From positions 192,001-256,000 of the forward strand of contig CAVTCR010000062.1 in the NCBI GenBank assembly GCA_963733195.1: 64,000 nt of DNA, given 5' to 3'. Below are positions 427-30,384 of the stretch, piece after piece. The notes under the pieces were generated by a model that was given only the letters and a program-made list of their open reading frames with translations, was not told the DNA's origin and made no database searches. The position numbers were made by a program, and so were the translations under genes. Source of the stretch: an uncultured delta proteobacterium (lineage in GTDB: Bacteria > Desulfobacterota > Binatia > Bin18). How positions within the stretch are numbered: the first letter of the stretch is position 1; each line of letters begins with the position of its first letter.

Positions 427-496
427 AGAATACAGATGCTACTGGTTCAAGGCTACGCGAACGGTTCAGGTTATCGTTCAGATTTCGGTTCAGATT
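427..496 (-). promoter_or_regulatory. TGAAC-repeat promoter cassette copy 1 (upstream of OmpA gene)
   Basis: GTTCA on + at 445, 464, 476, 488; TATTCT on - at 432-427. Confidence 0.8.
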
Positions 497-560
497 GTAG
501 GTTTTGGCACTGAATGAGTGCCCCGCAGGTTGTTCGGGTCAAACTAAAAGATTCTCGTGA

Positions 561-1727
561 TCAGTCGAGCTGAGCCTGCACCCCCTTCTCGCGAAGACGG
601 TGCCGAAGCTGAGCCAAGTCCTTGCGATACCTGTCTTCCAGGGGAGACTGTTGCGTCTGTGAGGGTTCTTCAGTATGGTGTCGTTGCCAGCGGCAAAACG
701 CCAATTCCGTCGCGGTGTGGTGCATTTGTCTCAGCACGAGCCAGGAGCGGAAGCCATGGTTCCTCAGCGCCCGCCATTCAGCTGTCAGGCGACTGCGGAT
801 GGAAGACAGGCGAGCATACTCCTCTGACGTGAGGGAACCGAGCTGTACCTCGTCGCGCAACCCTGCAGTGACCACATTCGCCTCGCGGCGTAATGCGAGG
901 ACGGTGATGACGAGCAGCGTAAGGCCGCCGGGACCGATGAACATTGCGACGATGAGAGGAATAGTCACAAAGAGTCCAATCTCATCCGGAGCCGGCTGGC
1001 ACGGCCCTCCTGAAATCTCCTGGTTGCAGAGCACTCCCATAATCATCTGGGAGGCAATAGCATTCCAGGCAATATGCTGCAAGATCGCACCGACCAAGCC
1101 GATCACTGGTGCGAGGAGCCGCATCTTTGCAGAAAGGGCTTCGCGAGCGTATCCGAACCCTGCCCCAGCAGCTGCGGTGAAGGCAGCATGGTTGAATCCG
1201 CCAAGGAAGGATCGCAGATAGATACTCTGCACGAGCCCGGACATTCCGCCCTGTACCGCAGCCAGCGTGAAGTAGCCGAGGTTTTCGGTCATGGCAAATC
1301 CCGTACCCACCAACGCCCCATAGACGATGCCATCAATGACATTGTCGAACTCTTCGTGCCAGAAGAGGAGAAGGATGAACAGAGCTATTGCCTTCGATAT
1401 TTCCTCGATGATGGGTGCAACAAGGACTGGCGTGAGAAGATGAGCCCTATCCGCACCTACAATGTCGATTACCCAGATATGAAAGAAATCGTTGACTGTG
1501 GAGGAGAGGAACGCGGCGATCACCGCGCCCCAGAAGAAGGCCACGAGCAGCAAGCGACCTGGCTCTCGTTCGTAGCGGTCGATAAGAACGAGCAATCCTG
1601 AATAGCAGACCGCGGGGACAAGAGCGGTGAGGAGGATGATCAGAGGCGTCCCCGTTATAAGCCGGACGAACCAGACGACGGGAATGAGAGCCAGAGCAAA
1701 AATACCAATGACGAACCCTCTTCTCAT
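561..1727 (-). CDS. PrsW-family intramembrane metalloprotease
   Basis: DRYEREP, APIIEEISK, GFAMTENLGY, HAAFT, HIAWN motifs; multiple TM helices. Confidence 0.9.
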   Translation of the reverse strand: MRRGFVIGIFALALIPVVWFVRLITGTPLIILLTALVPAVCYSGLLVLIDRYEREPGRLLLVAFFWGAVIAAFLSSTVNDFFHIWVIDIVGADRAHLLTPVLVAPIIEEISKAIALFILLLFWHEEFDNVIDGIVYGALVGTGFAMTENLGYFTLAAVQGGMSGLVQSIYLRSFLGGFNHAAFTAAAGAGFGYAREALSAKMRLLAPVIGLVGAILQHIAWNAIASQMIMGVLCNQEISGGPCQPAPDEIGLFVTIPLIVAMFIGPGGLTLLVITVLALRREANVVTAGLRDEVQLGSLTSEEYARLSSIRSRLTAEWRALRNHGFRSWLVLRQMHHTATELAFCRWQRHHTEEPSQTQQSPLEDRYRKDLAQLRHRLREKGVQAQLD

Positions 1728-1884
1728 GCAAGAGCTGTAGCATTACCTGGCTAGCACTGCCCGGCTAGGCACCTAGCACGATGAGGGTATCGCTGTCGCC
1801 CGCGCAGCGCAGATATAGGAGGGAACCCATATCCGCGTCAAACCGCGACGCCATGATCCATAGCCAGCAGCAAATTTGCGTGCC

Positions 1885-2160
1885 TTAGAGCGTTCTGCGT
1901 CTGAAGAGATTCACGACTGCCAGGAGAATTACCGCTCCGACGAGCGAGATCAGCAACGCCGGAAAACTAAAGTTGCCCTGATTCAGGGTCCCGATGCCGA
2001 ACAGGGGGGAGAGCAACACCCCACCGAGAAAAGCCCCCACGATACCGACGACGATATTTAGCAAGACCCCTTGTTGCGCGTTGGTCCCCATGATCATACT
2101 TGCGATCCAGCCGATCAATCCGCCCACGATGAGCCAGACGATGAGACTTGTGAGATCCAT
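1885..2160 (-). CDS. GlsB/YeaQ/YmgE stress-response (transglycosylase-associated) membrane protein
   Basis: IVWLIVGGLIGWIAS...NIVVGIVGAFLGG...SLVGAVILL pattern. Confidence 0.9.
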   Translation of the reverse strand: MDLTSLIVWLIVGGLIGWIASMIMGTNAQQGVLLNIVVGIVGAFLGGVLLSPLFGIGTLNQGNFSFPALLISLVGAVILLAVVNLFRRRTL

Positions 2161-2258
2161 AAGATACCTCCTTCTATAAATTCTGTGACCGCAGGAAGGA
2201 ATCGGGCCCGCCGAGCGTATCCGATTCTCTTCTCTTGGTTGAATGGGGTGAACCAGCC

Positions 2259-2510
2259 TTACGAGTCCAACGGGATGCGGATCTTTTGTCCGGGGAAGAT
2301 CCGGTCTACATCCTTGATCACTTCCCGGTTTGCCTCGAAGATTCTCGGATACTTGTTGGCATCGCCATAGTACTGCTTGGCAATCTTAGAGAGTGTGTCC
2401 CCCTTTCGGATGAGGTAGTACTCAACCTTTTCCTGCTCCGGCGGATGCTGCAGGCTGGCGACATCGATTTGGCCTACCCCTGGATGTTCCCTGCCATCAG
2501 CACGGCCTTC
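2259..2510 (-). pseudogene. BON-LysM (Kbp/YgaU-like) remnant; most of BON domain missing
   Basis: Manual translation: KAVLMAGNIQG (BON end), frameshift, then [50 protein letters not shown] (LysM). Confidence 0.75.
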
Positions 2511-2603
2511 TGCCTCCTCCTTACAGATACGAAAAAGTCTTGCAGAACGTTCCCTGGCTCAAATTGGCGAATGAGGGCTTCCCATGTCCGTTACCTGGCA
2601 GAG

Positions 2604-2673
2604 AGCATACTACTGGTTACAGTTCAAAGATAGGTGGACGGTTCAGGTTAGCGTTCAGATTTCGGTTCAGATT
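2604..2673 (-). promoter_or_regulatory. TGAAC-repeat promoter cassette copy 2 (upstream of BON-LysM/GlsB/PrsW)
   Basis: GTTCA at 2622, 2641, 2653, 2665; TATGCT on - at 2609-2604. Confidence 0.8.
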
Positions 2674-2926
2674 GGGGACGTCGGATATGCTCAGAACGAT
2701 GCGTGGCGGGACTATAGCTTGTAAATCCGAGCATTATCGGAACAACCGTGCCGATCTGTTTGCGTCGCGTGAGACGAGTGCACTGAGCGATCCGACTGTG
2801 TGTAGAAGCAGCTGGGGAGTGTCGGGACGGATCTCATACGGGACGTAAAGTGACACAAAAGGGCAGTTCCAGGATTTGAGCGTGGCCGCTTGTGAATCAC
2901 TGTGATTCTCTCTCCTGGGCTCACTG

Positions 2927-4876
2927 TTAGGTCCCCTCCTGTAGGCGCGACTCGGCTGTCAGGTGCAGGAACAAGATGCGGCGCACTTCGTTGATGGTGT
3001 GCGGGTTGGCCTGACACGAGTGTCCGGAGCGGACTACCAATTCGGAATCCACATCGTCGAGATGGGCGCTCGAGTACTCCACGATGCCGTCGTTGCCGTT
3101 TTCCACCGGGCCGTTGCCTTCCACAGCAATGATCGAATGTGTGGCGACACCTGGGGTCACTGAGATCGATGCGAGGGTGCGGATGAAGCGCGTCCCTGGC
3201 GTCATGTTGTGGACGGCAGTCGGTATAACCCCCATGGCCGTGAACGCTAGCGCTTCCTTGTTCCGTAGCACCAAGTCGTTGACGCCGTGCACGACGTCGA
3301 GGGGGGCAGTGATAAAGCGAGCAGCCCAGTGACTGAGACGGCTCCCAGCGAAGTAACTCCCACGCTGCGGTGTGGCGATGAATATCAGACGCCGGACGAA
3401 AGGAAGCGGGTGCACGAATGACAAGCGGCGGAGGAGGTCCCGACTCGCCTCCGTCAGGGCGAGTTTCTCCAGCGGCGTTTTGCTGAAGTGGTCCCAGAAA
3501 TGGGTGCCGCTGTCGATGGCGGCCAGCTTGGCCAGCAGCCCGCCTTGGCTGTGCCCGATCACCACCATTTTGCGCAGCGCCGGGTCTTGATGCTCGGGGT
3601 CGAGCCGTTCGAGCGCGGCACTGAGGGATTCGCGTAGCAGCATCGCCGAGTAGAGGACCGGGTTCCCGGTGTTGTAACTGAACAGCCAAAACTGGAAGTG
3701 CTCGCTGATCCGCGGGTCGTTATCGATCTCGTTTACCATCTCAGCCCAGCGGCCCGCGCTCGACCCCGTCCCGTGGACCAGGACGACCGGCATGCGACCC
3801 GGCTTATACGGGCTGAGTGCTGCCAGGCGGCTCTTCTCGTCGATCACCCCAGCACCCTGCAAGAAGCCCTTCAACTCTTGCTGCCAGACCGGGGCTTCAG
3901 CCAGCGTATAGGCCAGCGCCGCCGTCGATTCGACCTCAAGCGGAACGATTCTATCGTCGATCGTGACTGAGCTAGGACCGTACGAGGTATCAAGCTGCAG
4001 GGACGCACGTACACGACCTACCGCCAACTGCTTCCTGGGGTCAGCGATACGCAGGAGTGCGGTCACTGGGACCTTCGCCCAGGGCTGGACGAAGTCCTGA
4101 AAGCCCGCTTTGGGATCAAGCGGGACCGTCCCGGCAGCCAGGGGCGCACCAACACCCGGCCAGCGATAGCGGGTTATCAGCCCAGTCACTTGCAGTTCCG
4201 CCACCGGCACGAAATCAGTGAGCTGGCGGCTCCCCCAGCGCAGGCTCGCCGGGTCGAACTCTACGTCGAGCGCCCCGAAGGGCAGAGCGAACGTTCCCCC
4301 GCGCAGCTCGACTACAGCACCATCTTGCGATTTGAACCCCTCGGTGATCCCCCGGTTGTAGAGGTCAGCGGCTAGCCGCAGCCGCGGGTCGAAGGGGTCC
4401 GGCAAACGGTGGCCCTCACCCGGAAAAAGGAACGTATAGGCGTACACCACGGCTGCCAGGTAGTAAGGGCGTTTCCCGGTGTTTTCAGCGTAGAAGAAGG
4501 AGAGTTCTGCGAGCGCGCAGATATCGTCTCTCCCACCCCGGTCGGCGGCGACCTCGGCGTGGAGGTCAGCCAGCGTCGCCTCGGGCGTATCCTCAAAGCG
4601 TGCGAAAAGATCTCGCCGATAGAGTACGTTCTGGGTTGGATTACTCAGCGTATTAGCCGAGAGGATGCTGGCGGTCAGCGTGTGGTGCACGGCGCGCGGG
4701 TCGATCCGTTTCACCCCGACCGGGGTCGAGCAGGCGCTCGCAATCAGGAAAAGGCAGATGAACAACACCAGGCGGTGGTAGCGACTGTACGCCTCAGCTT
4801 TCGTTGTTTCTAGAGAACACGACAAGGGCGTGCCGCGCCAACTGGATGTTCTCAAGTCACTCCGTTGGTGTACCAT
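2927..4876 (-). CDS. Alpha/beta-hydrolase (esterase/lipase family) lipoprotein
   Basis: Lipobox IASAC, VVLVHG, GHSQGG nucleophile, NDGIV, SGHS; paralog of 23305-25272; true start may be downstream. Confidence 0.85.
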   Translation of the reverse strand: MVHQRSDLRTSSWRGTPLSCSLETTKAEAYSRYHRLVLFICLFLIASACSTPVGVKRIDPRAVHHTLTASILSANTLSNPTQNVLYRRDLFARFEDTPEATLADLHAEVAADRGGRDDICALAELSFFYAENTGKRPYYLAAVVYAYTFLFPGEGHRLPDPFDPRLRLAADLYNRGITEGFKSQDGAVVELRGGTFALPFGALDVEFDPASLRWGSRQLTDFVPVAELQVTGLITRYRWPGVGAPLAAGTVPLDPKAGFQDFVQPWAKVPVTALLRIADPRKQLAVGRVRASLQLDTSYGPSSVTIDDRIVPLEVESTAALAYTLAEAPVWQQELKGFLQGAGVIDEKSRLAALSPYKPGRMPVVLVHGTGSSAGRWAEMVNEIDNDPRISEHFQFWLFSYNTGNPVLYSAMLLRESLSAALERLDPEHQDPALRKMVVIGHSQGGLLAKLAAIDSGTHFWDHFSKTPLEKLALTEASRDLLRRLSFVHPLPFVRRLIFIATPQRGSYFAGSRLSHWAARFITAPLDVVHGVNDLVLRNKEALAFTAMGVIPTAVHNMTPGTRFIRTLASISVTPGVATHSIIAVEGNGPVENGNDGIVEYSSAHLDDVDSELVVRSGHSCQANPHTINEVRRILFLHLTAESRLQEGT

Positions 4877-5058
4877 GGAGATCTTCTCCGACTATCCAGA
4901 GCTGAAAGAAGTCGTTGACGTGAATGATGACCCGTCTCTCCATCCAAGAGAATGGAGACAAAGGAGGGAGATACGGTGAGGAGCAAAAAGCTGGGGCGAG
5001 GCAAGGTAAACACAACTGCGAGTTGTTTCAGAGGTGGTCTTAAAAGTCAGGGAAGTTA

Positions 5059-5170
5059 GTCATTGCGATTGGAACGAAGCACTCATTGCCCGCAAAAGAG
5101 ATTGCTTCGTCGCGAAGCCTGTCCTGAGCGATAGCGCAGCGAAATCGAAAGGGCTCCTCGCAATGACAGC
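5059..5170. repeat. Palindromic REP-like element (GTCATTGCG...CGCAATGAC family) with nested insert
   Basis: Terminal inverted repeat GTCATTGCG/CGCAATGAC; related copy at 17156-17385. Confidence 0.6.
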
Positions 5171-5222
5171 TCCCACCCATGTTTACGAAACGCTCTAGCC
5201 ATGTGTTAGCGTCGCCTGTCAG

Positions 5223-5699
5223 TTACCCTTTCACCTCGAACTCCTTTGTCCCGGTCGAGCGTCCGTTTAAGGAAACCTCCACTTTATAAGTTCCAGCGGG
5301 CCAGCCATCTGGCTTTGAGATATGGAACTCCGTTGCCGCAGGGCCAGTCGGCGCAATGGTCTGAGTGGACTCATTCACCACCTGCCCGTCTTGGTAGGTC
5401 CACTTCGCTGTCAGCGTAGCGCTCGGGGCTGAGCCGTTAGTGACAACTGTCGCGTAAATCGTATCTTTGGGTGCAAATGAAGTTATCTGTTGCTTCACCC
5501 GTTTGTCGGCCCCGATTTGATTCCCGAGTTCAACTGTGGTGACTGTCACAGCAGGTGCAGCGGGCGGAGGAGTCATGGGTGCAGCCGGCGGAGGGGCAGT
5601 GGCTCGCGGAGCCGGTGGCGGCTCAGACTTCCCACAAGCTGCAAAAATCAAGGCTAAGCATAATCCTAACAAGAAAACTGTCTGTCTTGAGTAGCGCAT
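5223..5699 (-). CDS. Hypothetical lipoprotein (Pro-rich linker, beta-rich domain)
   Basis: Signal peptide/lipobox FAAC, RBS GGAGG. Confidence 0.75.
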   Translation of the reverse strand: MRYSRQTVFLLGLCLALIFAACGKSEPPPAPRATAPPPAAPMTPPPAAPAVTVTTVELGNQIGADKRVKQQITSFAPKDTIYATVVTNGSAPSATLTAKWTYQDGQVVNESTQTIAPTGPAATEFHISKPDGWPAGTYKVEVSLNGRSTGTKEFEVKG

Positions 5700-5721
5700 C
5701 GCTCACCTCCCCTTTTTTGTC

Positions 5722-5988
5722 TTACGCCTCTGGAATTTTGAGTACCTGTCCCGGACGGATCACATCCGGATTCTTGAGGATGTCGGTATTCGCTTCATAG
5801 ATCTTCCGCCACTTGTTCGCGTTGCCGTACAGACTCTTGGCGATCTTCGACAGAGTGTCTCCTTTGGCGACCGTATATGTGCGGGCCGCACTCTTTGCCG
5901 GGGCGGGGCTCGGTGCAGGGCTCGGCGCGGTGGACGAGCCTCCACTCTGCACATTGGAAAAATCTGGTTTGGGTTTATTGTCCGCCAT
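5722..5988 (-). CDS. LysM peptidoglycan-binding protein
   Basis: [30 protein letters not shown]...[10 protein letters not shown]. Confidence 0.9.
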
Positions 5989-6131
5989 AGGATTCCTCCT
6001 TTCTCACAGTTATTGAACAAACATTTCCACGAGCAGCCAGCCGTTCTCTCTTACCTGTCCGGGCTCTTTACACGACCGTCGCCCTCAGGTGTTCTTATAT
6101 ACCTTCCTGTCCTACATTCAACAGTGTTGCC

Positions 6132-7091: not shown

Positions 7092-7132
7092 AATTGCTAC
7101 CTCCTATCCAACTGCGATGTCTCGCGCACGGG

Positions 7133-7954: not shown

Positions 7955-8136
7955 GTAGTCACTCCTTGATTTCTTCCGTCTATCAAAAACTACTCAACCA
8001 GCGCGGCGAAGTCCGGCCTCCCAACCGCTGCTGCGAAGGTCGGGAGGCAAGTACTTCCGAATAATATCCATGATGTCAGGACACATTCACTCAGGGGCGA
8101 GTAGCTACGAGTGCAAACTCGTGCGAGTCTTGGATT

Positions 8137-9022
8137 ATGATACCCCAAGACTCTTGGACTACTCGCCTCAAGGACTATATCGTGAAAGTACTCCCTTGGG
8201 CACATGGGCATCAACGCAAAGGGATTACGACCTTTGTGAACGCAATCATTGAGAAAACAAACCCGGCAACCAAGCCGAGCTAGCACGCAGCTTGGGCAAT
8301 CAAGAGGCGGCGCTCAAACGCCTGTCGCGCTTGCTGCATAACGAGCGGCTGGCTCCCCAGCGCCTGGCGGATGCGGTGTTGGCGCAGGCGCTGCGACAGT
8401 TGCCGCCACAGGGAAAATTGCGCTTGGCCGTGGACTGGACGAATGAAGGGACGCAGCATTTGCTGGTGGTCTCACTGGTTACTGGGGGCCGCGCAGATGC
8501 CGCTCTATTGGCGCGCCTACGAACGCCATGGTCTTGAAAGGGCGCATGCGTGGCTATGAGACAGCGGTCATCCGCCGCGCAATCACGTGGATGCAACGGG
8601 CAATTGGACGACCGCCGCTTGATCGTGACGGCCGACCGGGGCTTTGCCGATGTGGCGCTGGTAGACGTACTGAAGGAGCTGGGCGTAGAGTTCATTATTC
8701 GGGTCAAAGGGCGCACCAAAGTCTCTTGTCAGGAGCACTGGTGCAACCTCCACACCCTGCGCTTTGTGGGCAATGCGCGCCAGCGCAACCTGGGACGCCT
8801 GGCCTATTGTGAGAGTGCCCCGCATCGCTTGTGGCTGACGATAGAGTCGTACGCGAGACCGCTATGGGCAGTGGGACACGTGGTACTTGATTGCCAATCG
8901 CTGCCGCCGGGCCCAAGCCACGGCCGCAGAGTATGCGCGTCGGTTTGGCTGTGAGGAAGGGTTTCGCGATGCCAAATGGGAACTGGGCTTTGTACAAGCG
9001 CGGATCACGCAGATCCAAGCGT
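8137..9022 (+). mobile_element. IS4-superfamily DDE transposase, frameshifted and 3'-truncated
   Basis: MIPQDSWTTRLK...KRLSRLLHN, LAVDWT, IVTADRGF, FIIRVK, EEGFRDAK motifs spread over several frames. Confidence 0.8.
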
Positions 9023-9503
9023 GGTTTTCGCGGAAGTGAGGGAATTGCTCCTTCTTCGGATAGTTGTACATCTCTGGCTCTTCCTCGGCATGGAGGTGGT
9101 AGAGGTTGCGAAGAACTCGTCGAAGCCGTGATTGGTGGGCAACATGTGGTTTAGGTCGCCGAGGTGGTTCTTGCCGAACTGCCCGGTGGCGTAGCCCTGC
9201 TCTTTGAGCAGCGCCGCGATGGTGACGATCTTCTCCGACATGCCGACCGGGGCGGCGGGATACCGACCTTGGACAGCCCGGTGCGATAGACGCTCTGCCC
9301 AGTGATGAAGGACGAGCGCCCGGCGGTGCAGGACTGCTCACCGTAGCTGTCGGTGAAGCAACATGCCTTCCTTGGCGATGCTGTGCGATGTTCGGCGTTC
9401 GATACCTGATCAACCCGTGCGAGTAGCAGCTCAGATTCGATTGACCGATGTCATCGCCCCAGATAACGAGGATGTTCGGCTTCTTTTGCGTTTGCTCTGT
9501 CAT
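9022..9503 (-). pseudogene. Arylsulfatase N-terminal fragment, truncated at IS junction
   Basis: KKPNILVIWGDDIG, EQSCTAGR (CxxxR formylglycine motif), TGQFGKNHLGD, NLYHLHAEEEPE across frames; ends abruptly. Confidence 0.85.
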
Positions 9504-9800
9504 TGTATTTCCTCCTAAAAATGTGTTCATTTGATTGACCAAGGAGAGGGGAAGGATCGACGTGTGTGAATCCCCCGTGGTCTGGATGATATCCCTTGAA
9601 CGAGGTCATGATGCTGTGAGATAGGTCGGGTGGCGGATCTCGGTTAGACATTTTGGCACTCTACTCCCGCAGTAAAATACTCGCCTGAACTCCGAATCGT
9701 ATGAGATGTGCGGCATCCATCTCTCAGGCTTCTTTATGCCACAATGCAGCGGAAGCCGACGTGCGTGACGCTCTCAATTGCCATGCTCAAGTTGAGGAGT

Positions 9801-9870
9801 ATAATACGTTTGGATATGGTTCGGGGGTAGAGCAATAGTTGAGGGTATCGTTCAGATTTCGGTTCAGATT
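9801..9870 (-). promoter_or_regulatory. TGAAC-repeat promoter cassette copy 3 (upstream of sulfatase operon, divergent from EAL gene)
   Basis: GTTCG 9819, GTTGA 9838, GTTCA 9850, 9862; TATTAT on - at 9806-9801. Confidence 0.8.
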
Positions 9871-9988: not shown

Positions 9989-10741
9989 ATGATCGAGCTT
10001 AAGGCGATCCAAGAAGGGTTGGCCAAGGGTGAATTCTTTCTCGAGTACCAACCCATCTGCTCCCTCAAGAGCAACCACTGTGTCGGGGCGGAAGCTCTGA
10101 GCCGTTGGCGGCGTGGTCCCACTGTGCTTCCCCCTGGTGAGTTCATCCCCTGCATCGAAAACACCCCCCTGTCCGGGCTGCTGACTTACTGGGTCATCGA
10201 GACAGTGGGACGGGAGCTGGGGAACTGGCTCCGCGCCCATGCTGGCGTTCACGTCAGCATCAACGTACCCCCGGAAATACTGGGACGTGGGGGATTGGCC
10301 TACGCGGCGACCAAGGCGGGTTTGATGGACGTAGCGCACAAGATCGTCCTTGAAGTCACTGAGAGGGGGGTGCCCGACAAGCTGGGGATCCAGGCGCTTA
10401 ACTTCGCCGGACGCTATGGGACACAGGTCGCATTAGACGACTTTGGCTTAGAGGACGAGAACCTCGCGGTTCTCTCCCGCGCCCACATAGACATCATCAA
10501 GGTCGACAAGCTCCTGGTAGATCAACTCGGCGATGAGCCCGGGCTGCCGCCATGGCTAGAGGCGCTGTCGGCCTTATTGCGAGTGACGCCGCTCCAGGTC
10601 ATCGTCGAGGGGGTGGAGAGGGAGGTACAGGTCGAAAAGCTCAAGGAAGCCGGGATTGAGTTGGCCCAGGGGCTGTATTTCTCACCTCCGTTAGCGATCA
10701 AGGCCTTTGAGACGTTTGCTCGCAACCGGCAGCAACATTGA
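9989..10741 (+). CDS. Stand-alone EAL-domain protein (c-di-GMP phosphodiesterase-like)
   Basis: YQPI, GAEALSRW, SINV, LEVTE, ALDDFG, IKVDK, EGVE, QG motifs. Confidence 0.9.
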   Translation: MIELKAIQEGLAKGEFFLEYQPICSLKSNHCVGAEALSRWRRGPTVLPPGEFIPCIENTPLSGLLTYWVIETVGRELGNWLRAHAGVHVSINVPPEILGRGGLAYAATKAGLMDVAHKIVLEVTERGVPDKLGIQALNFAGRYGTQVALDDFGLEDENLAVLSRAHIDIIKVDKLLVDQLGDEPGLPPWLEALSALLRVTPLQVIVEGVEREVQVEKLKEAGIELAQGLYFSPPLAIKAFETFARNRQQH

Positions 10742-10825: not shown

Positions 10826-11485
10826 TCACCACGTATAGTGGAGGCCGAGGCCAAGATAGTCGACTTGCTGCCGAGACCCCGGAACGGTGCTCTGAGAGTT
10901 CCCCACAAAACCTTCGAGCATGAGCGACAGGGAGCGGTCCGGAGCATGGGTCTCGTTCCACCGCAACCCCGCACGCAGGGAGAAGTCGGTACTCCAGTCG
11001 TAGTCTTTATGAGACGTAAACTCGGCCGCGCCGATCGGTTGGATGGTGTGATCGAGGAGCAGCCAGGGGCTCGCGAAATCCAGCCCGAACTTCGCCGCCC
11101 GTGGTTTGAGAGAGCCAGGTTCCAAAGCTGAGAGAAACCACCCACCACCATAGAGCGAGACCATATCCGTCAGCCGGTACAAAAGGGTGACATCCAAGCT
11201 CTCCGCACGAGGATGGATACGAGCGATACGGTCATAGAGCACATCATTCAGCGGAGAGGGGGAGGCAGGCGAAGCGCTAGACCCCGGCAGTAAGGAGCCG
11301 TTTCTCTCCCACCACGCGGCGGTGTTCACCTGCACCTCGCGGGCGAACACGGCGGTCGTGTACCCGGTGCTGTACACATCATCTGCAGCCCTGGCGCCCG
11401 GTAGGGGAAACAGGCAGACAGCACTGATAGCACTGAGAAGGAGCACGCTCAGTCCTCTAAGAAGTTTGTTCTTCATCAGAGTCAT
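10826..11485 (-). CDS. Exported protein resembling the C-terminal barrel part of DUF1207 (possibly degenerate)
   Basis: Signal peptide; YGGG, DWSTDFSLRAG, DYLGLGLHY terminal aromatic pattern; shorter than I recall for the family. Confidence 0.5.
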   Translation of the reverse strand: MTLMKNKLLRGLSVLLLSAISAVCLFPLPGARAADDVYSTGYTTAVFAREVQVNTAAWWERNGSLLPGSSASPASPSPLNDVLYDRIARIHPRAESLDVTLLYRLTDMVSLYGGGWFLSALEPGSLKPRAAKFGLDFASPWLLLDHTIQPIGAAEFTSHKDYDWSTDFSLRAGLRWNETHAPDRSLSLMLEGFVGNSQSTVPGSRQQVDYLGLGLHYTW

Positions 11486-11818: not shown

Positions 11819-11888
11819 TTATTACGTCTGGCTACGGTTCAGTGGTAGATAAATCGTTTAGGGTATCGTTCAGATTTCGGTTCAGATT
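11819..11888 (-). promoter_or_regulatory. TGAAC-repeat promoter cassette copy 4
   Basis: GTTCA 11837, GTTTA 11856, GTTCA 11868, 11880; TAATAA on - at 11824-11819. Confidence 0.75.
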
Positions 11889-12068: not shown

Positions 12069-12598
12069 CTATGCAGCAGTCGCACTCTCGGCTTTCGTTT
12101 GCACGGTCTCCGACCGCCTAGCAGACCCACGTTGCTGAGCGAGTAGCACCACCGTGCTCCGCGGGCTGGCAATGTAATGATCGGACGGATCGATTTGGAC
12201 CTCCCGACCAGGCTCCGCGAAATCCTCACCGTTCGTTAGGCTCGTATCGATAGCGCGGTGCCAGCCGTGGCCAGACTCGAGTAGCGGCAGTTTCACCCAT
12301 TGTGACTCGAAGTGGGCGTTGAAAATGAAGAACAGGCGGTCAACGCCGAGATCGGATCCATCTTCACTAGCATCAAGCTGATAGCAAAGCGTCCGCACGT
12401 TCTCATCTTGCCACTTGGGACGATCCAGGTCCAGCGAAAACCAGGTGAGGTCCGGCACCTGATCATCAGGAAGACTTCAGTTGCATTCTTCGAGTAGATA
12501 GCGAAATTCACCCCCTCCGGAGTGAGGGTGGCCCCGAGCGGAAAGTGGGTGCCCTTCTCAACCGTCTTCGTAGTGCGATGTTTGAGTTCATACGGCAT
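12069..12598 (-). pseudogene. glgX: Glycogen debranching enzyme remnant: N-terminus joined to C-terminus by large internal deletion
   Basis: GTHFPLGATLTPEGVNFAIYSKNAT (GlgX N-term) abuts PDLTWF...FFIFNAH...WHRAIDT...PRSTVVL (C-term); catalytic domain absent. Confidence 0.85.
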
Positions 12599-12856: not shown

Positions 12857-12926
12857 AGAATACGTTTGCCTGTGGTTCAGGGACAGTCAAAGAGGTTAAA
12901 TTATCGTTCAGTTTTCTGTTCAGATT
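12857..12926 (-). promoter_or_regulatory. TGAAC-repeat promoter cassette copy 5 (glgX promoter, divergent from wHTH-STAND regulator 1)
   Basis: GTTCA 12875, degenerate box ~12894, GTTCA 12906, 12918; TATTCT on - at 12862-12857. Confidence 0.78.
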
Positions 12927-12969: not shown

Positions 12970-15900
12970 ATGGCATCAGGCCACGAGACATTAACCCAAC
13001 CAGCAGTGAGATCTGACCTCTACTTCGGCCCGTTTCGCTTAGAGGGCGCCAAACACCTGTGGCGGGGCGAGCATCTCGTAGAGATGCGGCCCCGGCCCCT
13101 GGCCGTGTTGCGCTACTTGGCCGGGCGGCCGGGCCAATTTATTAGCAGTGAGGAATTACTCAAACGCTTATGGCCGGGCATCTACGTGACCAAGACGGTA
13201 TTACGAGTCTGCGTGCATGAGATTCGACAAGCACTGGAGGAGGACCCGACCACTCCCCAGTTTATCGAGACGGTGGGCCGTCAAGGGTATCGGTTCATTG
13301 CCCCACTCGCCACTACCGCTCCTCCAGTTACCAGTTATCAGTTGGCAGTTGGCAGTTCGGACACAGCAGAAACGAAGCCCCCACAACTGGGCCTTGAGAA
13401 TTGGCAACTGGCCGACTCCCTTCGTCGGCCGTGCACAGGAACTGGCCAGGTTGCATGAGATGTTCGAACGCGCGCGGCATGGCGAGCGCCAGATCATGTT
13501 TCTCTCAGGCGAGTCCGGGATCGGGAAGACGGCATTGGTGGATTGCTTTCTCGACCAAGTGCGGAACCAGCGAGCCGTGCGGATTGGCCAGGGGCAATGT
13601 GTTGAACAGTATGGCTCTGGGGAAGCCTATTTACCGTTGTTGGAAGCGTTGGGACAGTTGTGTCGAGAGCCGGGTGGTGAGCAGGTGTTGGCCGTGCTGC
13701 ATCGCTATGCGCCGACGTGGCTGGCACAGATGCCTGGACTGCTCAAGGCCGGTGAACTGGAAGCAGTACAACGGCAAGGACAAGGCATCAACCGAGAGCG
13801 CATGCTGCGGGAGTTGGCCGAGGCTATTGAGGCTATAGCGGCTGACGCGGTGCTGGTGTTGGTCTTAGAAGACCTGCAATGGAGCGATCTCTCGACACTG
13901 GACGTCTTAGGGTATCTGGCGCAGCGGCGGCGGTCGGTGCAGTTGTACATCCTGGGCACGTATCGACCCGCAGACGTGGTGGCGGGTGGGCATCCATTGC
14001 GCCAGGTGGTGCAGGAACTGTACGGACGGAGGCAATGCGAGGAACTCGCGCTCGAACTCTTAAGCGAAGCGGAGGTGGAAGAGTATCTGCAGCAGCGCGC
14101 CGGTCGGCGGACCGCCATCGCTAAGCTCAGCCAGATGATTTATCGCCGAACGGATGGGAATGCGTTGTTCATGGTGAGTTTTGTGGACTATTTACTGCAG
14201 CACGGGCTGCTAACCGAAGACGAGGGTCAAGGCCAGCTACGGGCAGACCTCAGCGCCTTCAGGCGGCTCGTACCCACCAGCTTGCAGCGGATGATTCTAC
14301 GACAGATCGAGCACTTATCTGCGGACGAGCAACAGTTATTACACGTTGCGAGTGTGGGTGGGATGACGTTCACGGGAGCAGAGGTGGCGGGAGTGGTCGG
14401 AGGTCTACTAGAGGAAGTGGAAGACATGTGTGACCGTTTAGCCAGCAGGGAGCGGTTAATCGCAGTGGCCGGGCTTGCCGAGTGGCCGGACGGGACAGTG
14501 ACGGTGCAGTACCAGTTTCGCCACGCGCTCTATCAGCAAGTGTTATACGAGCAGATAGGACAAGCGCGGAGGGTGCGGCTCCACCAGCAATTTGGTGAGT
14601 GGAAAGAAGGGCGATATGGAGAGCGGACGGTAGAGATCGCCAGTGAATTAGCAGTCCATTTCACCGAAGGGCGGGAGTATCGCAGAGCGGTACAGTATCA
14701 CTACCAGGCGGCGAGAGATGGCGCTTCAGCGCAGTGCGTATTATGAAGCGAATGACCACTGCCAAAAGGGGTTAAAGCTGTTTGAACGGTTACCCGACAC
14801 ACTGGAGCACGTTCATTTGGAACTCGCCCTCCGCAAGCTGCTTAATACAGCGCTGGTCTCGACGCACGGCTATACAGCAGAAGAACTTGCTCAGAACCTC
14901 CGTCGAGCACAAGAGTTATGTCAGGAGACAGGGAATACAGTGGATCTTGTCCCTGTTTTGACTGGACTCGGTCGCCTGTATCAAGTGCGCGCTGCCCGCA
15001 TCGCAACAGAGGCAATCGCAGCGCAAGAATGCCGCCTTCTTGAGTCCGTTCACGACCCGCTGCTTGCCTTACAGTTGCACTCCCAACTTGCCAGCATCAA
15101 CGTGATGGGCGGGGCTCCGGTTCGTGCCCTAGCGCATCAGCAGCAAGCCCTCACTCTCTATGACGCCACGGCGCACCATGCGTTATTCCTGTCGTTTGGT
15201 ATAGATCCGATGGTGACTGTTTACGGCCTGGGGAGCTGGAGTGCATGGTTCGCTGGGTACCCCGAGCTCGCTCAGAGCTACCTGGAGAAGGGTTTGGCCC
15301 ACGCTGACTCTCTCTCTAATCTCTTCTCTAGGGTTCTGATCCGGGCAAACGGCGCGCAGCTATTCCTCTTCCGGCATGAACCTGATGCGGCGCTGTCATT
15401 GGCTCAACAGGGTTCTGCCTTAGCGCATGCACACGGGATCCCACAAGACGTCATCACAGGAAGTATCATGCAGAGTTGCATTGCGCTGCAACAAGGAGGG
15501 ACCGACAAAGAGATCGCAGCAATCAGTGAAGGACTTGAGCAGTATCGAATGACATGCGCTCAGCTTCACCTTCCCTTCTATCTTTCCGTCCTGGCCGAAG
15601 GGTATATGCAGCTGGGCAGACTTGAGGAAGGGCTGCAGGCCGTATGTGAAGCGCTACAGTTGTGCGAGGTACATTTTGATCGATACTGGGAAGCTGAGCT
15701 CTATCGGCTGAAAGGCGAGCTACTTCGTCTGAACGCGGAACGCAGAATGCAGAATGATGAACGGCAAAGCCAAGAACAAGGGACGAGCAGCATTCCCCAT
15801 TCCTCACTCATCATTTATCATTCATCGTTCTGCCGAGGCCGAAGCGTGTTTCCTCAAGGCCATCGAGATTGCTCGCACACAACAAGCAAAGTCACTAGAG

Positions 15901-16059
15901 CTGCGTGCGACGATGAGTCTCGCCCGTCTCTGGCAACGGCAAGGAAAGCACCGCCAAGCACACACTACGTTGTCTGCGATCTATGGCTGGTTCACGGAGG
16001 GTTTTGATACGAAAGACCTGCAGGAGGCGAAAGCGTTACTCGATGCCCTGCGAGAGTGA
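12970..16059 (+). CDS. Transcriptional regulator: OmpR/PhoB-type winged helix + STAND (AAA_16) ATPase + TPR; three apparent frameshifts
   Basis: FGPFRL...[12 protein letters not shown]...[12 protein letters not shown]; Walker A GESGIGKT; Walker B LVLEDLQW; [12 protein letters not shown]...[13 protein letters not shown]...[11 protein letters not shown]; ORFs 12964-13458, 13217-14746, 14718-16007, 15754-16059 join. Confidence 0.88.
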
Positions 16060-16564: not shown

Positions 16565-16759
16565 CTATGGCTTTTGCTGTTTCATCACCATCTGAACCAA
16601 GAATGCCACCAACTCCTCTAGCGACTCGAAGTGCTCGGCTTGGTGTGACACCAGATGCTCAACCCGCCCTTTGAATTGGCCCTGCTCGATCCGTGCCTCA
16701 GCATGGATCTGCACAACAAAGGCTCTTCTGGCCGGCAAAGAAGGCTGATTTTTTGCCAT
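16565..16759 (-). CDS. Small hypothetical protein (64 aa), convergent with regulator 1
   Basis: MAKNQPSLPARRAFVVQIH...GRVEHLVS...FESLEELVAFL; RBS GGAAGG; own copy of the promoter cassette. Confidence 0.75.
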   Translation of the reverse strand: MAKNQPSLPARRAFVVQIHAEARIEQGQFKGRVEHLVSHQAEHFESLEELVAFLVQMVMKQQKP

Positions 16760-16814: not shown

Positions 16815-16884
16815 ACAGTAATATTTGCCGCGGTTCAGAGATAGGTATACGGGCCAGTCTATCGTTCAGCTTTTCGTTCAGTTT
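16815..16884 (-). promoter_or_regulatory. TGAAC-repeat promoter cassette copy 6
   Basis: GTTCA 16833, degenerate 16852, GTTCA 16864, 16876; TACTGT on - at 16820-16815. Confidence 0.78.
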
Positions 16885-16904: not shown

Positions 16905-16965
16905 AATATGAACAGAAAACTGAACTATACGCGTCTATTCATAAACCGTTCCGTCACGTAAGAAT
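16905..16965 (+). promoter_or_regulatory. Divergent, 10-bp shorter variant of the cassette facing the + strand operon
   Basis: AATATGAAC-AGA-AAACTGAAC-N16(ending CTATTCA)-TAAAC-N12-TAAGAA. Confidence 0.5.
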
Positions 16966-22192: not shown

Positions 22193-22273
22193 AACTTTGG
22201 TGTGCCAATTTTGTGTGTTTCGATTTAGCATTGTCTATTGTCACGCGCCCGACTCTCCTAAGAGGCTCTAGAA

Positions 22274-23269: not shown

Positions 23270-23304
23270 ATTTTTCCTTTGCAAACCAACTGTACGGAGA
23301 AAAG

Positions 23305-25272: not shown

Positions 25273-25377
25273 GGCAAGGCGAGAGATGTTTCATTTCTTT
25301 GTTCGATATGGCCTAAGCCATAAGAGGAACATCGTCAAAACTCAGAAGAAGGAGGAACGAGCAATGAAGAGATTAAC

Positions 25378-26445
25378 TGAAGCCTGCGCGTAAAGGGGTC
25401 GGGGGTAGCAGAGAGTCAAAAGTCTCTGCATGGTCTCGGGCTTATGGTAACCAACCTCAGCCCGTGCCCCCGACGCACTGCTGAAGATAGTGGAACAAGT
25501 GAAAGAATACTACGTTGACCCCTCTCCCCAATGGCAACGAGGTCGTCCGCGGACGTTCTCCGGTCGCGCCTTTCTGCTCTGGCGGTAGTGGCGGTGGTGC
25601 TGCGGACCTTCAAACCCCAGGAGCTGCGCACGCTCTTGACCAAGGACGACGGCCTGCGGCAACGGCTGGGTTTAGATCGCGTCCCGCACCGGCGCACCCT
25701 GGCGCGGCGACTGGACGCGACGCTGCCGGAGGCCGAAGCGCAAGTCCAAGCCCTGGGGCAACAGATTCTGGGGGAAGTGGCGCCAGGTCCGGATGAGCCC
25801 CAAGCTTCCGCCATTGATGGGCGCATGTACCAAGCCCAAGGGCCGTGCTGGCATAAGCGCGACCGGGCGCAGGGGCGGATACCTCCGGGCTGCGCAATGT
25901 GGACAGGGAGTCGGCGTGGTCCAAGAGTGGGTATCGGGGCTGGGTGCAAGGCTATCGGTTGATCCTGCAAGGCTTGGTTTTTCCCACTCCCGTGCCCCTC
26001 TTTGCCCGCTGGTGTTCCAACGCAGTAGGGGAAACCACCGTGCTGGAAGAGGCCCTGGCCGCTGAGCAACTCCCCGTTACCGAATTCTTGCTGGGCGACT
26101 CGACCTTTGGCGGGGCTGACCTCGTGGCCCCCTATGCTCAACACGGTGGCTGGTTGCTTACCCCCCAGCAGTTGCCGAGGAACCCGGACTCGTGGAAACG
26201 TGACCTCTATGCTTATCGACGCGAAACCATCGAGTTGCTCTTCCAGCGCCTCATCCAAGCCTATGACCTTAAAACCTGCCCTACCAAAGGCTTGGCGCGT
26301 ACGGGCACCTTTGTCCTCGCTAGTGTGTGGCTCTATCAAGCGCTTGTTCTCGACAACCATCACCATCACCGACCTGTCGCTCACATCAAAGAGATCATCG
26401 ATGAAGGCCGCTGGCGCATCGCGGCCTGAATTACGCACGGCTTCA
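25378..26445 (+). mobile_element. ~1.07-kb insertion sequence with frameshifted DDE transposase (25531-26429)
   Basis: Imperfect terminal IR TGAAGCCTGCGCGTAA / TTACGCACGGCTTCA; SAIDG, LLGDSTF, RRETIELLFQRL motifs; interrupts an RBS+ATG at 25364. Confidence 0.75.
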
Positions 26446-26649
26446 TATAGATGGTAGGCGTGGGTAGCGTATTAGCGCAGTTTGCTCAGGCGTCCCACAT
26501 GGTTCAGATTGAGCACGTAAGTTCGTCAGGACACATAGTATGAAAGATTAGGTCACCCAGATTGACGGTGCCTATCGCATCACCGATTCGTGCGTCTCAC
26601 TCAATTCGGTCGTGCATGCCTGGCGCGATGACTTGTCGCCCGAGAGTAT

Positions 26650-27903
26650 CTAAGGAACACTGGTCAAATCTTTCCACGTCTCCCCGTCGGAGGAAGTCAA
26701 AATTACTCCTCTGCCGACAGCAACGAAGCGTGAACCATTCCAGGTGATGCTCATCAAGTCCGCCGTCGTGCCAGACTTTCTGGCCTTCCACTGTTTTCCG
26801 TCCAGGGAAGTGACAAGTACCCCACTAGAGCCGACGGTGACAAACCTCTTACTGCCCCAAGCCACCGCACGGAGCGGATCAAAAACGTTGACCCTGACCT
26901 GAGTCCAGGTCTTCCCATCCGGCGAGGTGAAGATGCTGCCTTGGCGCGCTTTGCTACCCACTGTGACAAATAGCGCCCCGTTCCAGGCAACGTCCGTGAG
27001 CAAGGCGTTCGTGCGGAACTGACGTGTCCACGTCTCCCCATCCGGCGACGTCAGCAGGGCGCTGGTGAGACCGAATTTGCCACGATTGGTGTTCCCGAGG
27101 GCAACGAAAGCGGAACCAGTCCAGATCACGTCGGCAAAGACCGACTCATTGCTTTCGAGAGCAGAAGTCCTGTCAGTCCAGGTTCTACCATCCGGTGAGG
27201 TAGCAAGACACCCACGTCCGTAGAAACCTCCCACCGCGACAAACAGTGAAGTATTGGCGGCGACACGGGTAAAGGCGCAGGTCGAGACAGTGGCGGCGAC
27301 CATCCACCTCTGCCCGTCCGGCGAGATTAGAATACGTTCTCCCACGGCGACAAACGCCGTGCCGTTCCAGGCAACGCCGTATAACACGCCGGGCTTCTCT
27401 CCCGACTCGAGCAGCCCAGGAGAGTCTCTTATCGACACCTTGCTCCAGCGCACTCCGTCGGGTGAGGTCAACGCCACCGTTGCGTTCAGGGACCCGCTAC
27501 CCACCGCAACAAACTGTGCATTTCCCCAGGTGACATCATAAAGGTAATAATCTGTGAGTTGCCGTGCCGCTACCGGCTCACCGGACCCCTGTTGCGCAGC
27601 TGCTGGTGCGACATTCCTGCCGAGGGCGAGACAGCAAGAGAAAAAGAGGCCGAAGCTGACAAGGCGGGCTTTCGTGTGGGAGCTGAATCTTCCTTCCCCG
27701 AGCAAAACAGCCTCCTTGCGTCCAATTCTCAATCTCCTGAAAATTAGCCTTACCGCGCCACCGCTCTCTCTACCGCCTGGAGCCCGCTTGATATCCTTGC
27801 TCGTATGCCTGTTGTTGGGACCTCTTATGGGAGTCGTAAATGTACCCGCCTGCCAAACCCGTTGCCCCGCCGATCGCCGCCCCCAGTCCGGCATTACCAG
27901 CAA
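26650..27903 (-). CDS. Beta-propeller repeat protein (BNR/WD40-YVTN-like; TSPDG-W repeats)
   Basis: Seven repeats of (V)AWNG..FVAVG....TSPDG..W; real start likely downstream of 27770. Confidence 0.8.
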
Positions 27904-28054
27904 TCGCGCCGATCAGCGCCCCACCTGCTGCACCCATCGCCCCGCCACTGACCACCCGTTGCTGGGTCGGGTTCATCTCAGAGCATCCCCCTAACCACAC
28001 TGTCACAAGGAAGAGTAGAGCTGTTGTGAAACGTCTCATACCGTTTTTCTCCAT
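27770..28054 (-). CDS. Glycine-zipper lipoprotein
   Basis: LGGC lipobox, [27 protein letters not shown]. Confidence 0.85.
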   Translation of the reverse strand: MEKNGMRRFTTALLFLVTVWLGGCSEMNPTQQRVVSGGAMGAAGGALIGAIAGNAGLGAAIGGATGLAGGYIYDSHKRSQQQAYEQGYQAGSRR

Positions 28055-28056
28055 AA

Positions 28057-28505
28057 TTAAGTGCTTATGTTGGCTTTCATTTCTTCGTGCCGGGCGTTGT
28101 ACTCACTGCACCGCCTGTGGGTCGCGCCGTCTGGGCACGGCCATTGCCACGTCGCGAACCGCATGAGGGAGTCTACCGGGCGTTCCCCCATGTACTGAGA
28201 GTTCTGCTTGGCCCACCCCACGAACATCTGCACCGCTTGCCGGCGCTCCGGCTGCGGCTCGGGCAGGCAGAACAGCGGCTTCGCCTCAGGGCCCGCCTGC
28301 TGCGCCATATAATAGTGGTAGGCCCGACCACATACCCGAAGCAAAAACCGATCGCCGGCCCATGTAATGGGTCAGTCTCCGGCGCTGTACAGAGTTCAAC
28401 GAGATCCTGCGTCGTTCGCACAAGGAATGTATCTCGTGTGACTGCCGCCGATGGCATGGGCCATAAGCAAAGTATGGATAAAATATATAATGCTCTGTAT
28501 CGCAC
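28057..28505 (-). CDS. Rap1a/Tai-family periplasmic protein; frameshift near 28325
   Basis: GTG start with GGAGGAG; TTQDLVELC...FCFGYVVG/AYHYY...FCLP...WAK...WPCP Cys pattern. Confidence 0.7.
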
Positions 28506-28609
28506 GGTCTCCTCCTTAATACATAATACACACAAAATATTGACCACTTTGTTCCCAGACGGAGCAGACGGTCCGCCGATTACCTTAGCGCATGGCTGCG
28601 GGACACCGC

Positions 28610-29059
28610 TCACGCAGCCGTTCTGAGACTGAGAGGCCGGTTGACTCTCTGCTTCCTGATCCGTCTTATCTGGGCAGGGCGCTGCTGACGCCACTGCGTG
28701 AGTCCCTTGCGCACGTAATCTGGGTCGAGGCCTAAGGCTGTACAGATATTGACAAAAGAGAACGGCCAGCATTCATCCTGGGAAAAGAACCACGCTTCGG
28801 CTTCTTTGGCGAGACGCTGAGCGCGTTTGCCGTCCTCAACAAAGGGTTTGACAAAACAATTAAAGGCGTCTTCCAGTACCGCACGCATGAGGGCAAACTC
28901 GCCCTGGCCGTGGTCGTGTGGAAGGCCGAAGAACTGCTCCGGCAGCACGGCAACTGAAGATAAGGTGAGACTCGCCGCAGCGGCAGTGGGGGGTGACGGG
29001 AATATGACAGCACTAAAGGGTTGGCCTCGATCTTCCAGCGAGGTACACACGTCCTTCAT
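28610..29059 (-). CDS. Conserved hypothetical protein
   Basis: LMRAVLEDA...EAEAWF...WPFSFVNICTALGLDPDYVRKGL; RBS GGAGG. Confidence 0.7.
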   Translation of the reverse strand: MKDVCTSLEDRGQPFSAVIFPSPPTAAAASLTLSSVAVLPEQFFGLPHDHGQGEFALMRAVLEDAFNCFVKPFVEDGKRAQRLAKEAEAWFFSQDECWPFSFVNICTALGLDPDYVRKGLTQWRQQRPAQIRRIRKQRVNRPLSLRTAA

Positions 29060-29103
29060 AAAGAAAACCTCCGACAGAGAGATAAAAAGGGCGATGCTTC
29101 TTG

Positions 29104-29346
29104 CTATTTCCCGCCCAGCGCAGATTGAACCTTTTTGAGCGTGTCAATGTTTTTCTGCAGCCCACTGACATGATCTTGCATCTCCACAATCGAGGTGCCC
29201 AACTCCCCGACCGAGCCCAGGGCTCCAGAGCCGGCGGCTTGTTTTATCGCCGCCCCTCCCAGGTCTTTCAACTGTGCATCTGCCTTTTGCTGGCTCAACG
29301 AACCGCAGATGAAACCGATGCCAAACATGCCAATGAGTGCGGCCAC
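29104..29346 (-). CDS. Small exported hypothetical protein; upstream in-frame ATG (29382) is followed by TAA at codon 4
   Basis: Hydrophobic N-terminus, helical C-terminus; GAGG RBS before 29382. Confidence 0.55.
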   Translation of the reverse strand: MAALIGMFGIGFICGSLSQQKADAQLKDLGGAAIKQAAGSGALGSVGELGTSIVEMQDHVSGLQKNIDTLKKVQSALGGK

Positions 29347-29503
29347 CCGCAGACTTCGAGCGCTTGTACTTTACTGTGTCATGATATCCTCACTCTAAAA
29401 ATTGTAATTGTAAGATTCGTATGTTGCCCACGGTCCTGAACTCTCCGGCGGATTCCCGCAGAGAGCAGGCTCCCCGGGATTCTTCTCGCCAACCTCAGAA
29501 CTG

Positions 29504-30253
29504 TTATGTTCTTCGTACCGCTGGAGCGGGTGCATCCGCCACTACGACCTTGTCCGTCTCCTCTTGCCCCAGCCAACGGTACGTGAACCCTGCGAGAATC
29601 GCTCCCACGATCGGTGCAAACCAGAACAACCACAACTGTGCCAGTGCCCAGCCGCCTACAAACAGCGCTGGTCCCGTGCTCCGCGCCGGGTTGACCGAGG
29701 TGTTCGTCACCGGGATGCTAATGAGATGGATCAGGGTTAGCGCGAGCCCAATGGCGATGGGCGCAAACCCCGTCGGCACGCGGCGGTCTGTGGCTCCTAA
29801 GATGATCAAGAGGAACATGTAGGTGAGGAAGAGTTCGGCCACGAACGCCGCCACCAATGTGTAGCCTCCGGGCGAATGGGCTCCATACCCGTTCGCGGCG
29901 AACCCGCTCTGCACGGCATCAAACCCCTCTTTGCCACTGGCAATCAGATACAATACCCAGGCTCCGATCACAGCTCCCGCCACTTGCGCCACAATGTAGG
30001 GGACAAGATCCGCACTCGGGAAGCGGTTACCTGCCCAGGCACCGATGGACACCGCCGGGTTCAGGTGACAGCCCGAGATGTGCCCCACGGCGTACGCCAT
30101 GGTCAGTACGGTGAGCCCGAAGGCAAGGGAGACACCCAGTAACCCGATGCCCACGTTGGGGAAAGCGGCCGCGAGCACGGCACTGCCACAGCCGCCGAAC
30201 ACGAGCCAGGCGGTTCCGATAAATTCTGCGACTAAGCGATTCGCCATTGGCAT
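29504..30253 (-). CDS. aqpZ: Aquaporin Z
   Basis: [25 protein letters not shown]. Confidence 0.95.
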
Positions 30254-30314
30254 ATACTTCTCCTCTCTTTTAAAAAATTTCTTTGTCACAGCTGGCTGCC
30301 ATTGTCTAGGAGAT

Positions 30315-30384
30315 AGAATACGTGCGGCTATGGTTCAGAGATAGGCGAATCGTTCAAGTTATCGTTCAGATTTTGGTTCAGATT
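30315..30384 (-). promoter_or_regulatory. TGAAC-repeat promoter cassette copy 7 (aqpZ operon, divergent from PAS kinase)
   Basis: GTTCA at 30333, 30352, 30364, 30376; TATTCT on - at 30320-30315. Confidence 0.82.

Follow-up and report, generated by a model that had tools for sequence, protein, structure and literature searches.

Which protein reads a 70-bp promoter-like element that stands seven times on the same strand of one stretch of DNA from an uncultured delta proteobacterium (GTDB lineage Bacteria; Desulfobacterota; Binatia; Bin18)? The stretch, here called the window, comprises 64,000 nucleotides (assembly GCA_963733195.1, contig CAVTCR010000062.1, positions 192,001 to 256,000), and each element, or cassette, carries directly repeated TGAAC boxes followed at a fixed distance by a -10 hexamer. 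An initial annotation, made from the letters alone, had taken the cassettes for activator-dependent promoters of one regulon with a winged-helix reader, and all the tests run support this view. The cassettes are quite probably promoters with built-in operators for an activator encoded at position 12970, which combines a winged helix-turn-helix (wHTH) domain, a STAND ATPase and TPR-like repeats, and for its near-identical paralogues at 34404 and at the locus C65. The fixed position of the -10, the orientation of the cassettes, which is that of the genes downstream, the lack of RNA structure and the presence of a winged-helix regulator head-to-head with cassette 5 all fit this reading.

Cassettes and promoter geometry

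All seven copies lie where the annotation had placed them (Table 1), and their -10 hexamers, 12 bp past the last box, are TATTCT in three copies and TATGCT, TATTAT, TAATAA and TACTGT in the others. The third box had been described as degenerate in some copies and is an exact TGAAC in three of seven; the fourth box reads CGAAC in copy 3. A position weight matrix (PWM) scan of the 6.9-Mb genome, which the annotation had called for, returns 11 copies against none in a both-strand shuffle. A looser, box-based search finds 19 sites genome-wide, with eight in the window, whereas the reversed genome gives none. Between the seven copies, pairwise identity is 0.91 over the box and -10 columns, 0.48-0.53 over the two long spacers and 0.24-0.29 over the 40-bp flanks. 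An eighth site in the window, at 16905, was absent from the annotation. Its -10 lacks the final T, and it is directed into plus-strand genes including that for MscS, standing back-to-back with cassette 6 as a bidirectional unit. A lone AATCTGAAC box at 26502-26510 on the minus strand has neither an array nor a -10 at the expected distance.

For a non-circular test of the geometry, 54 distinct sites were picked by their TGAAC boxes alone from the genome and fetched loci. TA follows the last box by exactly 12 bp in 52 of the 54 and the full TAnnnT in 44; at any other offset from 5 to 21, TAnnnT occurs in at most six. The hexamer 17 bp upstream of the -10 is conserved as T-R-T-H-Y-C. Its first base, which with a 17-bp spacing lies 23 bp before the -10, is T in 98% of these sites, and the -35 is therefore poor yet constrained. 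The annotation was right that this hexamer is not TTGACA-like; its position is conserved, however, so a -35 is not absent. A TAnnnT -10 at a fixed position together with a constrained hexamer 17 bp upstream is a layout of the sigma-70 type, and a factor of that type would presumably serve these promoters. By convention, the -10 element spans -12 to -7. With this placement the four boxes begin at -72, -60, -48 and -29, and the T-R-T-H-Y-C hexamer occupies -35 to -30, leaving three boxes upstream of the -35 and one inside the -35/-10 spacer. The 12/12/19 spacing reported for the seven copies is present in all of them, although it is one of several variants, 12/21 and 11/12/19 being found as well.

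Between boxes 2 and 3, a conserved GATA can be read as a -10-like hexamer on the opposite strand (12902-12907, plus strand in cassette 5), facing the ATG of the regulator gene, and may be the regulator's own promoter. Two other identities for the repeated sequence were tried and rejected. A structured RNA or known RNA family finds no Rfam match in window positions 1-40000 and no folding signal, the cassettes folding no better than shuffles (z -0.4 to 1.4). Reading GAAC as part of a -35/-10 promoter of an extracytoplasmic function (ECF) sigma factor does not fit the spacing of the ECF consensus.

The regulator and its family

The product of the gene at 12970 has an OmpR-type winged helix, an AAA_16 STAND ATPase and TPR-like repeats by Pfam. 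In the present assembly the gene is split over four reading-frame pieces. The genes rpoB and rpoC (G000:C71:133111-141235) are likewise each split into at least three frames, a sign of frequent indel errors in this assembly, and the frame breaks of the regulator are therefore probably assembly errors. The domains were placed on an intact orthologue of 1004 residues, L002. Its N-terminal winged helix is a Pfam Trans_reg_C domain (residues 36-109), and only a disordered linker (117-134) separates this from the ATPase in the AlphaFold model. A BTAD domain finds no match in L002 at E up to 0.01, and a Response_reg match, indicative of a receiver domain, is not found in the regulator. The AAA_16 match exceeds the Pfam cut-off, both the window copy and the orthologue keep intact Walker A and Walker B motifs, and G167, G170, G172, K173 and D288 are invariant among homologues. 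His505, within F-x-H-A-L, is invariant across 105 homologues; judged by position rather than by superposition, it may be the MHD-type histidine that ends the nucleotide-binding module of STAND proteins, and so the counterpart of the F/Y-H-D motif of AfsR. Helical repeats begin at about residue 518 of the model, with Pfam TPR matches below cut-off. The model reaches a pLDDT (predicted local distance difference test) of 92 with an alignment and 40 when folded from the single sequence, and its top fold match is the STAND-TPR protein 6mfv, with an E value of 8e-12 and a template modelling (TM) score of only 0.29. By the tests run, namely a P-loop with Walker A and B and a C-terminal repeat domain, the regulator is a STAND protein. 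Since BTAD is lacking it is not a SARP, and since a receiver domain is lacking it is not an OmpR response regulator; judged from its sequence, it is a one-component wHTH-STAND-TPR protein.

The head-to-head layout of regulator and cassette recurs at C65, C87 and C18, in relatives and in metagenome loci. Because the array covers the divergent promoter region of the regulator itself, autoregulation is suggested. At G000:C65:133126-141410, three near-identical wHTH-STAND paralogues form a tandem series in which the same repeat words precede every gene. At G000:C8:70267-70546, a short gene remnant comes after a full cassette and precedes a same-strand wHTH-STAND gene of another subfamily, possibly a regulator cascade.

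The cassette and the regulator are also found together across genomes. The strict cassette pattern occurs in five of 36 same-family genomes and in none of 24 genomes of other families. Among the 36, a winged-helix match at E <1e-44 is present in four of the five motif-positive genomes and in none of the 31 motif-negative ones. A scan of a species-level genome collection returned eight rows on seven loci, titled as Deltaproteobacteria, Proteobacteria or Enterobacteriaceae metagenome-assembled genomes, which overlap with the same relatives and so are not independent. The looser pattern matches 17 times in the source genome and once each in six of 400 other genomes of a phylum sample; with five matches in the reversed control and one same-family genome in it, this sample is at background and gives no sign of a wide distribution of the cassette. 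The sequencing runs listed for the stretch are assembled contigs that contain at most 0.13 of its words, and none serves as evidence here. The regulator's relatives are abundant: of 8000 scored, at least 2342 clusters reach E values up to 1e-30, most of them named by domains only. A homologue 43% identical to the regulator is labelled Candidatus Binatia.

The source genome has 44 winged-helix matches. From this genome and fetched loci we assembled 139 near-full-length, non-redundant homologues, each accompanied by 200 bp of sequence upstream of the gene. An array was called where three boxes facing away from the gene had a score beyond the 95th percentile of those from 500 control upstream regions. 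A significant array of its own with an 11/12-bp period accompanies 83 of the 139. Among the paralogues of the source genome, 14 of 22 have one (p = 7e-7), while other periods give 0-2 of 22. A second score, applied to 138 homologues after removal of one row containing N bases, passes 99, and these arrays comprise 38 different 5-bp cores. Box position 4 is A in 95 of the 99, a regularity that the registration prior imposes in part; we leave it out of the evidence.

These 99 arrays include two types of promoter. In 32, as in the window, the last box lies 12 bp before a TAnnnT, the -10 here being part of the definition of the type. In another 33, boxes repeated every 11 bp lead into a near-consensus -35, and 20 of these have a TAnnnT 17-18 bp beyond it; the remaining 34 match neither type. 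The upstream boxes lie at about equal distance from the -10 in both types, and the 19-bp gap of the window type would therefore be the stretch that holds the -35, with an extra half-site beyond it. Spacing also follows the protein. Where the regulator has the helix type of the window, all five adjacent arrays show 12/12/19 or a 1-bp variant of it (11+20 in one, a last gap of 20 bp in another); a Lys79 sister subfamily associates with 12/21, and other clades of the regulator family often have an 11-bp period.

Sequence covaries as well. A test over 54 clusters and 384 residue-base column pairs ranks residue 79 with box position 5 first (z 8.6, or 7.2 with coarser clustering), and residues 76, 83 and 84 are likewise near the top of the 384 associations. 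Lys or Arg at residue 79 goes with C at box position 5 in 36 of 38 clusters, against 2 of 15 for other residues. Residue 84 tracks box position 1: Arg84 goes with G in three of five clusters, Glu84 in two of 38. By helix register, residue 84 corresponds to Arg201 of PhoB, which bonds a guanine according to the sections available of PMC3973317, and to Arg92 of AfsR, the residue that recognises the first T of the AfsR half-site in the excerpt at hand of PMC10936776. A phylogeny-aware test was also made on a tree of 482 columns and 54 rows (in 69 of the 99 the frame was long enough, and near-duplicates were removed). The code that these pairs suggest between helix and box is a strong lead rather than a result.

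Mechanism, alternatives and known systems

With an activator of this kind, we infer binding, oligomerisation and activation, and the signal that would set them off, as follows. Each TGAAC box would be a half-site for an OmpR-type winged helix. A ligand would bind the TPR of the autoinhibited regulator; the ATPase would exchange ADP for ATP, and the protein would then oligomerise. Several winged helices, held on the flexible linker, would fill the array. They would sit just upstream and just downstream of the -35 site and jointly recruit RNA polymerase to the poor -35. The ligand switch and the oligomerisation are modelled on STAND proteins as described in the consulted parts of PMC10936776 and bioRxiv 10.64898/2026.09.02.748808. 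A broader proposal is more tentative, and we would put it somewhat below an even chance. It holds that an expanded, lineage-restricted family of BTAD-less wHTH-STAND-TPR activators has come to form many largely orthogonal regulator-operator pairs, with specificity set in part by a code in which Lys or Arg at residue 79 specifies C at position 5 and residue 84 specifies position 1, and that one branch flanks the -35 by means of an ATP-driven oligomer, leaving it free for sigma region 4.

Several observations weigh against the activator encoded at 12970 as reader of the cassettes, or against parts of the proposed code. The homologues were picked by similarity to the window protein, and 56 of the 139 have no significant array. 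The genomes and homologues compared are kin and not independent of each other; on the tree, the residue-79 rule goes in the same direction in four of four supported pairs, yet this gives p = 0.125, and the residue-76 rules are unsupported on the 54-row tree. One genome, G008, has the motif with a best winged-helix match of only 2e-34, the genome being 74% complete. None of nine distant homologues from cultured bacteria has a significant array. The window regulator is frame-broken, its paralogue is truncated and several targets are remnants, and for these reasons the regulon may be partly decayed. In addition, the genome has several TGAAC-type paralogues, so that the product of the 12970 gene may not be the sole reader.

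The same wHTH-STAND protein could instead act mainly as a repressor, its spacer box blocking polymerase until a ligand releases it. A box between -35 and -10 is in the classic repressor position, and the array overlaps the promoter region of the regulator. However, a -35 far from consensus and base-exact spacing are needed by activation and not by repression. Activation from such places also has precedents: AfsR achieves it with a half-site located in the spacer (PMC10936776, in the passages available), and Salmonella PhoP with a box 12 nt before the -10 (PMC3335776, likewise). We regard a repressor as unlikely. A different reader is conceivable in the FixL/FixJ-like two-component pair at 30479-34128, which is divergent from cassette 7 and stands in a similar order of kinase, regulator and wHTH gene in two relatives. 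The FixJ-like regulator has no orthologue at E up to 1e-40 in three of five motif-bearing relatives, which are 74-84% complete, and matches to it at E up to 1e-60 come from two genomes of other families that lack the motif. This pair also leaves unexplained the arrays whose sequence follows the winged-helix paralogues. We rejected the FixJ-like protein as reader of the boxes on its presence in only two of the five, and give the pair little credence in this role; it could act upstream, controlling the wHTH gene at 34404.

With about as little probability, an alternative sigma factor or another unlinked regulator reads the cassette and the wHTH gene is merely a target or neighbour. The T-R-T-H-Y-C hexamer and the partly conserved 12-bp spacer could be determinants of such a sigma factor. 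Spacings of ECF sigma factors are 16-17 bp, and the 12 bp from the last box to the -10 are too few for this. Covariation between helix and box favours the winged helix, and the arrays with other cores that end in a near-consensus -35 have their -10 at 17-18 bp in the 20 of 33 already mentioned. Finally, the cassette could be a dispersed repeat, the end of a mobile element or a small RNA copied around an island. The spacers are more alike than the flanks, so copies may descend from one another. Nevertheless, a same-strand reading frame follows all 11 PWM matches, and the random orientation that the annotation had named as a warning sign is not seen. The Rfam and folding results above also speak against a repeat or small RNA, and the number and spacing of the boxes depend on the subfamily of the regulator next to them, with the -10 in a constant place. 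This last explanation is very improbable.

The activator encoded at 12970 can be set beside known systems. AfsR, a large SARP of Streptomyces coelicolor, binds two adjacent 11-bp repeats at -40 to -19 of the afsS promoter, overlapping a poor -35 (PMC10936776, in the part consulted). Both proteins join an N-terminal OmpR-type DNA-binding domain to a STAND nucleotide-binding module and TPR, and both systems have direct-repeat half-sites with one inside the -35/-10 spacer, a poor -35 and a small-protein gene among the targets. Unlike AfsR, the window regulator has no BTAD, which is half of the SARP module. Its spacer half-site starts about 2 bp further upstream; beyond it the array continues with one half-site at a distance of 19-21 bp and a further two spaced by 12 bp. 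The sequence comparison with the PDB gave a single match to AfsR, located in the TPR region. SARPs activate through contacts with sigma region 4 and polymerase, and their contiguous 11-bp direct repeats differ from the 12/12/19 cassettes. PimR, a SARP-LAL protein, has three direct repeats at the pimM promoter; they are spaced by 11 bp and stand upstream of the -35 in the region that separates the regulator gene from its target, and the sections available of the PimR study describe no spacer half-site (PMC5930380). PimR too has an OmpR-type domain fused to an ATP-binding module, and its promoter matches the second type of the family. PimR differs in having the SARP module, and the window type adds the spacer half-site and the 12-bp period. 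By analogy, the window system appears to work like AfsR and PimR without being a SARP system.

PhoB and the class II promoters of Salmonella PhoP share the winged-helix fold, with recognition-helix residues that read the half-site, and architecture I of PhoP has its box 12 nt before the -10 (PMC3973317 and PMC3335776, in the excerpts seen). The window regulator differs in lacking a receiver and so a phosphorylation switch, and its half-sites do not form one contiguous pair spanning the -35. CadC, ToxR and HilA are the best sequence matches of the DNA-binding domain and also have an N-terminal winged helix without a receiver. However, the matches cover only about 110 residues and fall far below the family cut-offs, and the window protein adds a STAND ATPase.

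In the sections available, a 2026 survey of STAND proteins names only MalT, GutR and AfsR as transcription regulators (PMC13581612). Our literature search, with most subscription journals outside its scope, found no description of the motif or the regulator family, no assigned sites or targets, and no precedent for an activation layout that flanks the -35. The cassette supplies one subfamily of these regulators, of about 1000 residues, with a concrete operator, promoter geometry and regulon. The host is uncultured, and the pattern is not seen in the nine homologues from cultured organisms. Dozens of natural helix-box pairs allow a direct test of an old question, how half-site sequence is encoded in OmpR-type recognition helices, and the family might be a kit of ligand-gated activators. 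A homologue on a cultured Paracoccaceae plasmid (L219:1270-1410) has a hint of two divergent upstream boxes, one of them TGAAC, with no significant array.

Target genes and neighbouring features

The genes named as targets in the annotation do lie downstream of the cassettes, although the glgX, LysM-like, sulfatase and DUF1207 genes are partial or remnants. Of the labels, OmpA and aquaporin hold by Pfam; the BON-LysM gene keeps a LysM-like piece only, a BON domain not being seen. The LysM and sulfatase labels are probable, and the sulfatase remnant resembles the start of a Pfam Sulfatase protein. The targets at 2255-2440, 8862-9542, 10826-11485 and 12069-12598 are remnants, their promoters intact. 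Elsewhere, TGAAC cassettes precede genes for MscS, sulfatases, FadL-type outer-membrane proteins, bestrophin-like proteins and an ion channel, and DUF202, DUF1622, DUF937-OmpA, DUF533 and DUF2092 genes. The regulon would be a gene set of the envelope and osmotic-stress type, plus a 64-aa protein. The gene for the latter is the first behind the TGAAC cassette in 13 of 28 loci examined. None of its 305 homologues bears a family name, Pfam has no family for it, and an atlas search gave unnamed clusters only.

Table 1. Positions of the cassettes, regulators and target genes in the window.
Feature	Position	Strand	Remarks
OmpA-domain gene, 5' part	1..372	-	target of cassette 1; OmpA by Pfam
Cassette 1 (four TGAAC boxes, -35-position hexamer, -10)	427..496	-	precedes OmpA-domain lipoprotein gene
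Cassette 2	2604..2673	-	precedes LysM-like remnant, transglycosylase-associated protein and PrsW
Sulfatase N-terminal remnant	8862..9542	-	target of cassette 3
Cassette 3	9801..9870	-	precedes sulfatase remnant and downstream genes including one of the formylglycine-generating-enzyme family
Partial DUF1207 gene	10826..11485	-	target of cassette 4
Cassette 4	11819..11888	-	precedes partial DUF1207 gene
glgX/isoamylase remnant	12069..12598	-	target of cassette 5; internal deletion, only the two ends kept
Cassette 5	12857..12926	-	head-to-head with regulator gene, 43 bp from its ATG; glgX remnant downstream
Proposed cognate regulator, wHTH-STAND-TPR	12970..16059	+	Pfam; tblastn against intact orthologue L002
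64-aa protein, unnamed family	16565..16759	-	first gene behind cassette 6
Cassette 6	16815..16884	-	64-aa protein gene first behind it
Eighth site	16905..16964	+	12/21 spacing; two boxes and a degenerate spacer box 21 bp on
Aquaporin (MIP family)	29504..30289	-	target of cassette 7; Pfam
Cassette 7	30315..30384	-	aquaporin target; divergent from PAS kinase, response regulator and second wHTH-STAND gene
PAS histidine kinase, FixL-like	30479..33469	+	half of rival regulator pair
FixJ-like response regulator	33466..34128	+	rival candidate
Second wHTH-STAND paralogue	34404..36410	+	near-identical recognition helix; truncated at about residue 630 of orthologue

A stand-alone EAL-domain gene (9989-10741, plus strand) separates cassettes 3 and 4 and is divergent from the former. 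Genes for PQQ-dependent dehydrogenases, a solute-binding protein and a beta-propeller protein, some of them frame-split, are located at 57093-63272 on the minus strand.

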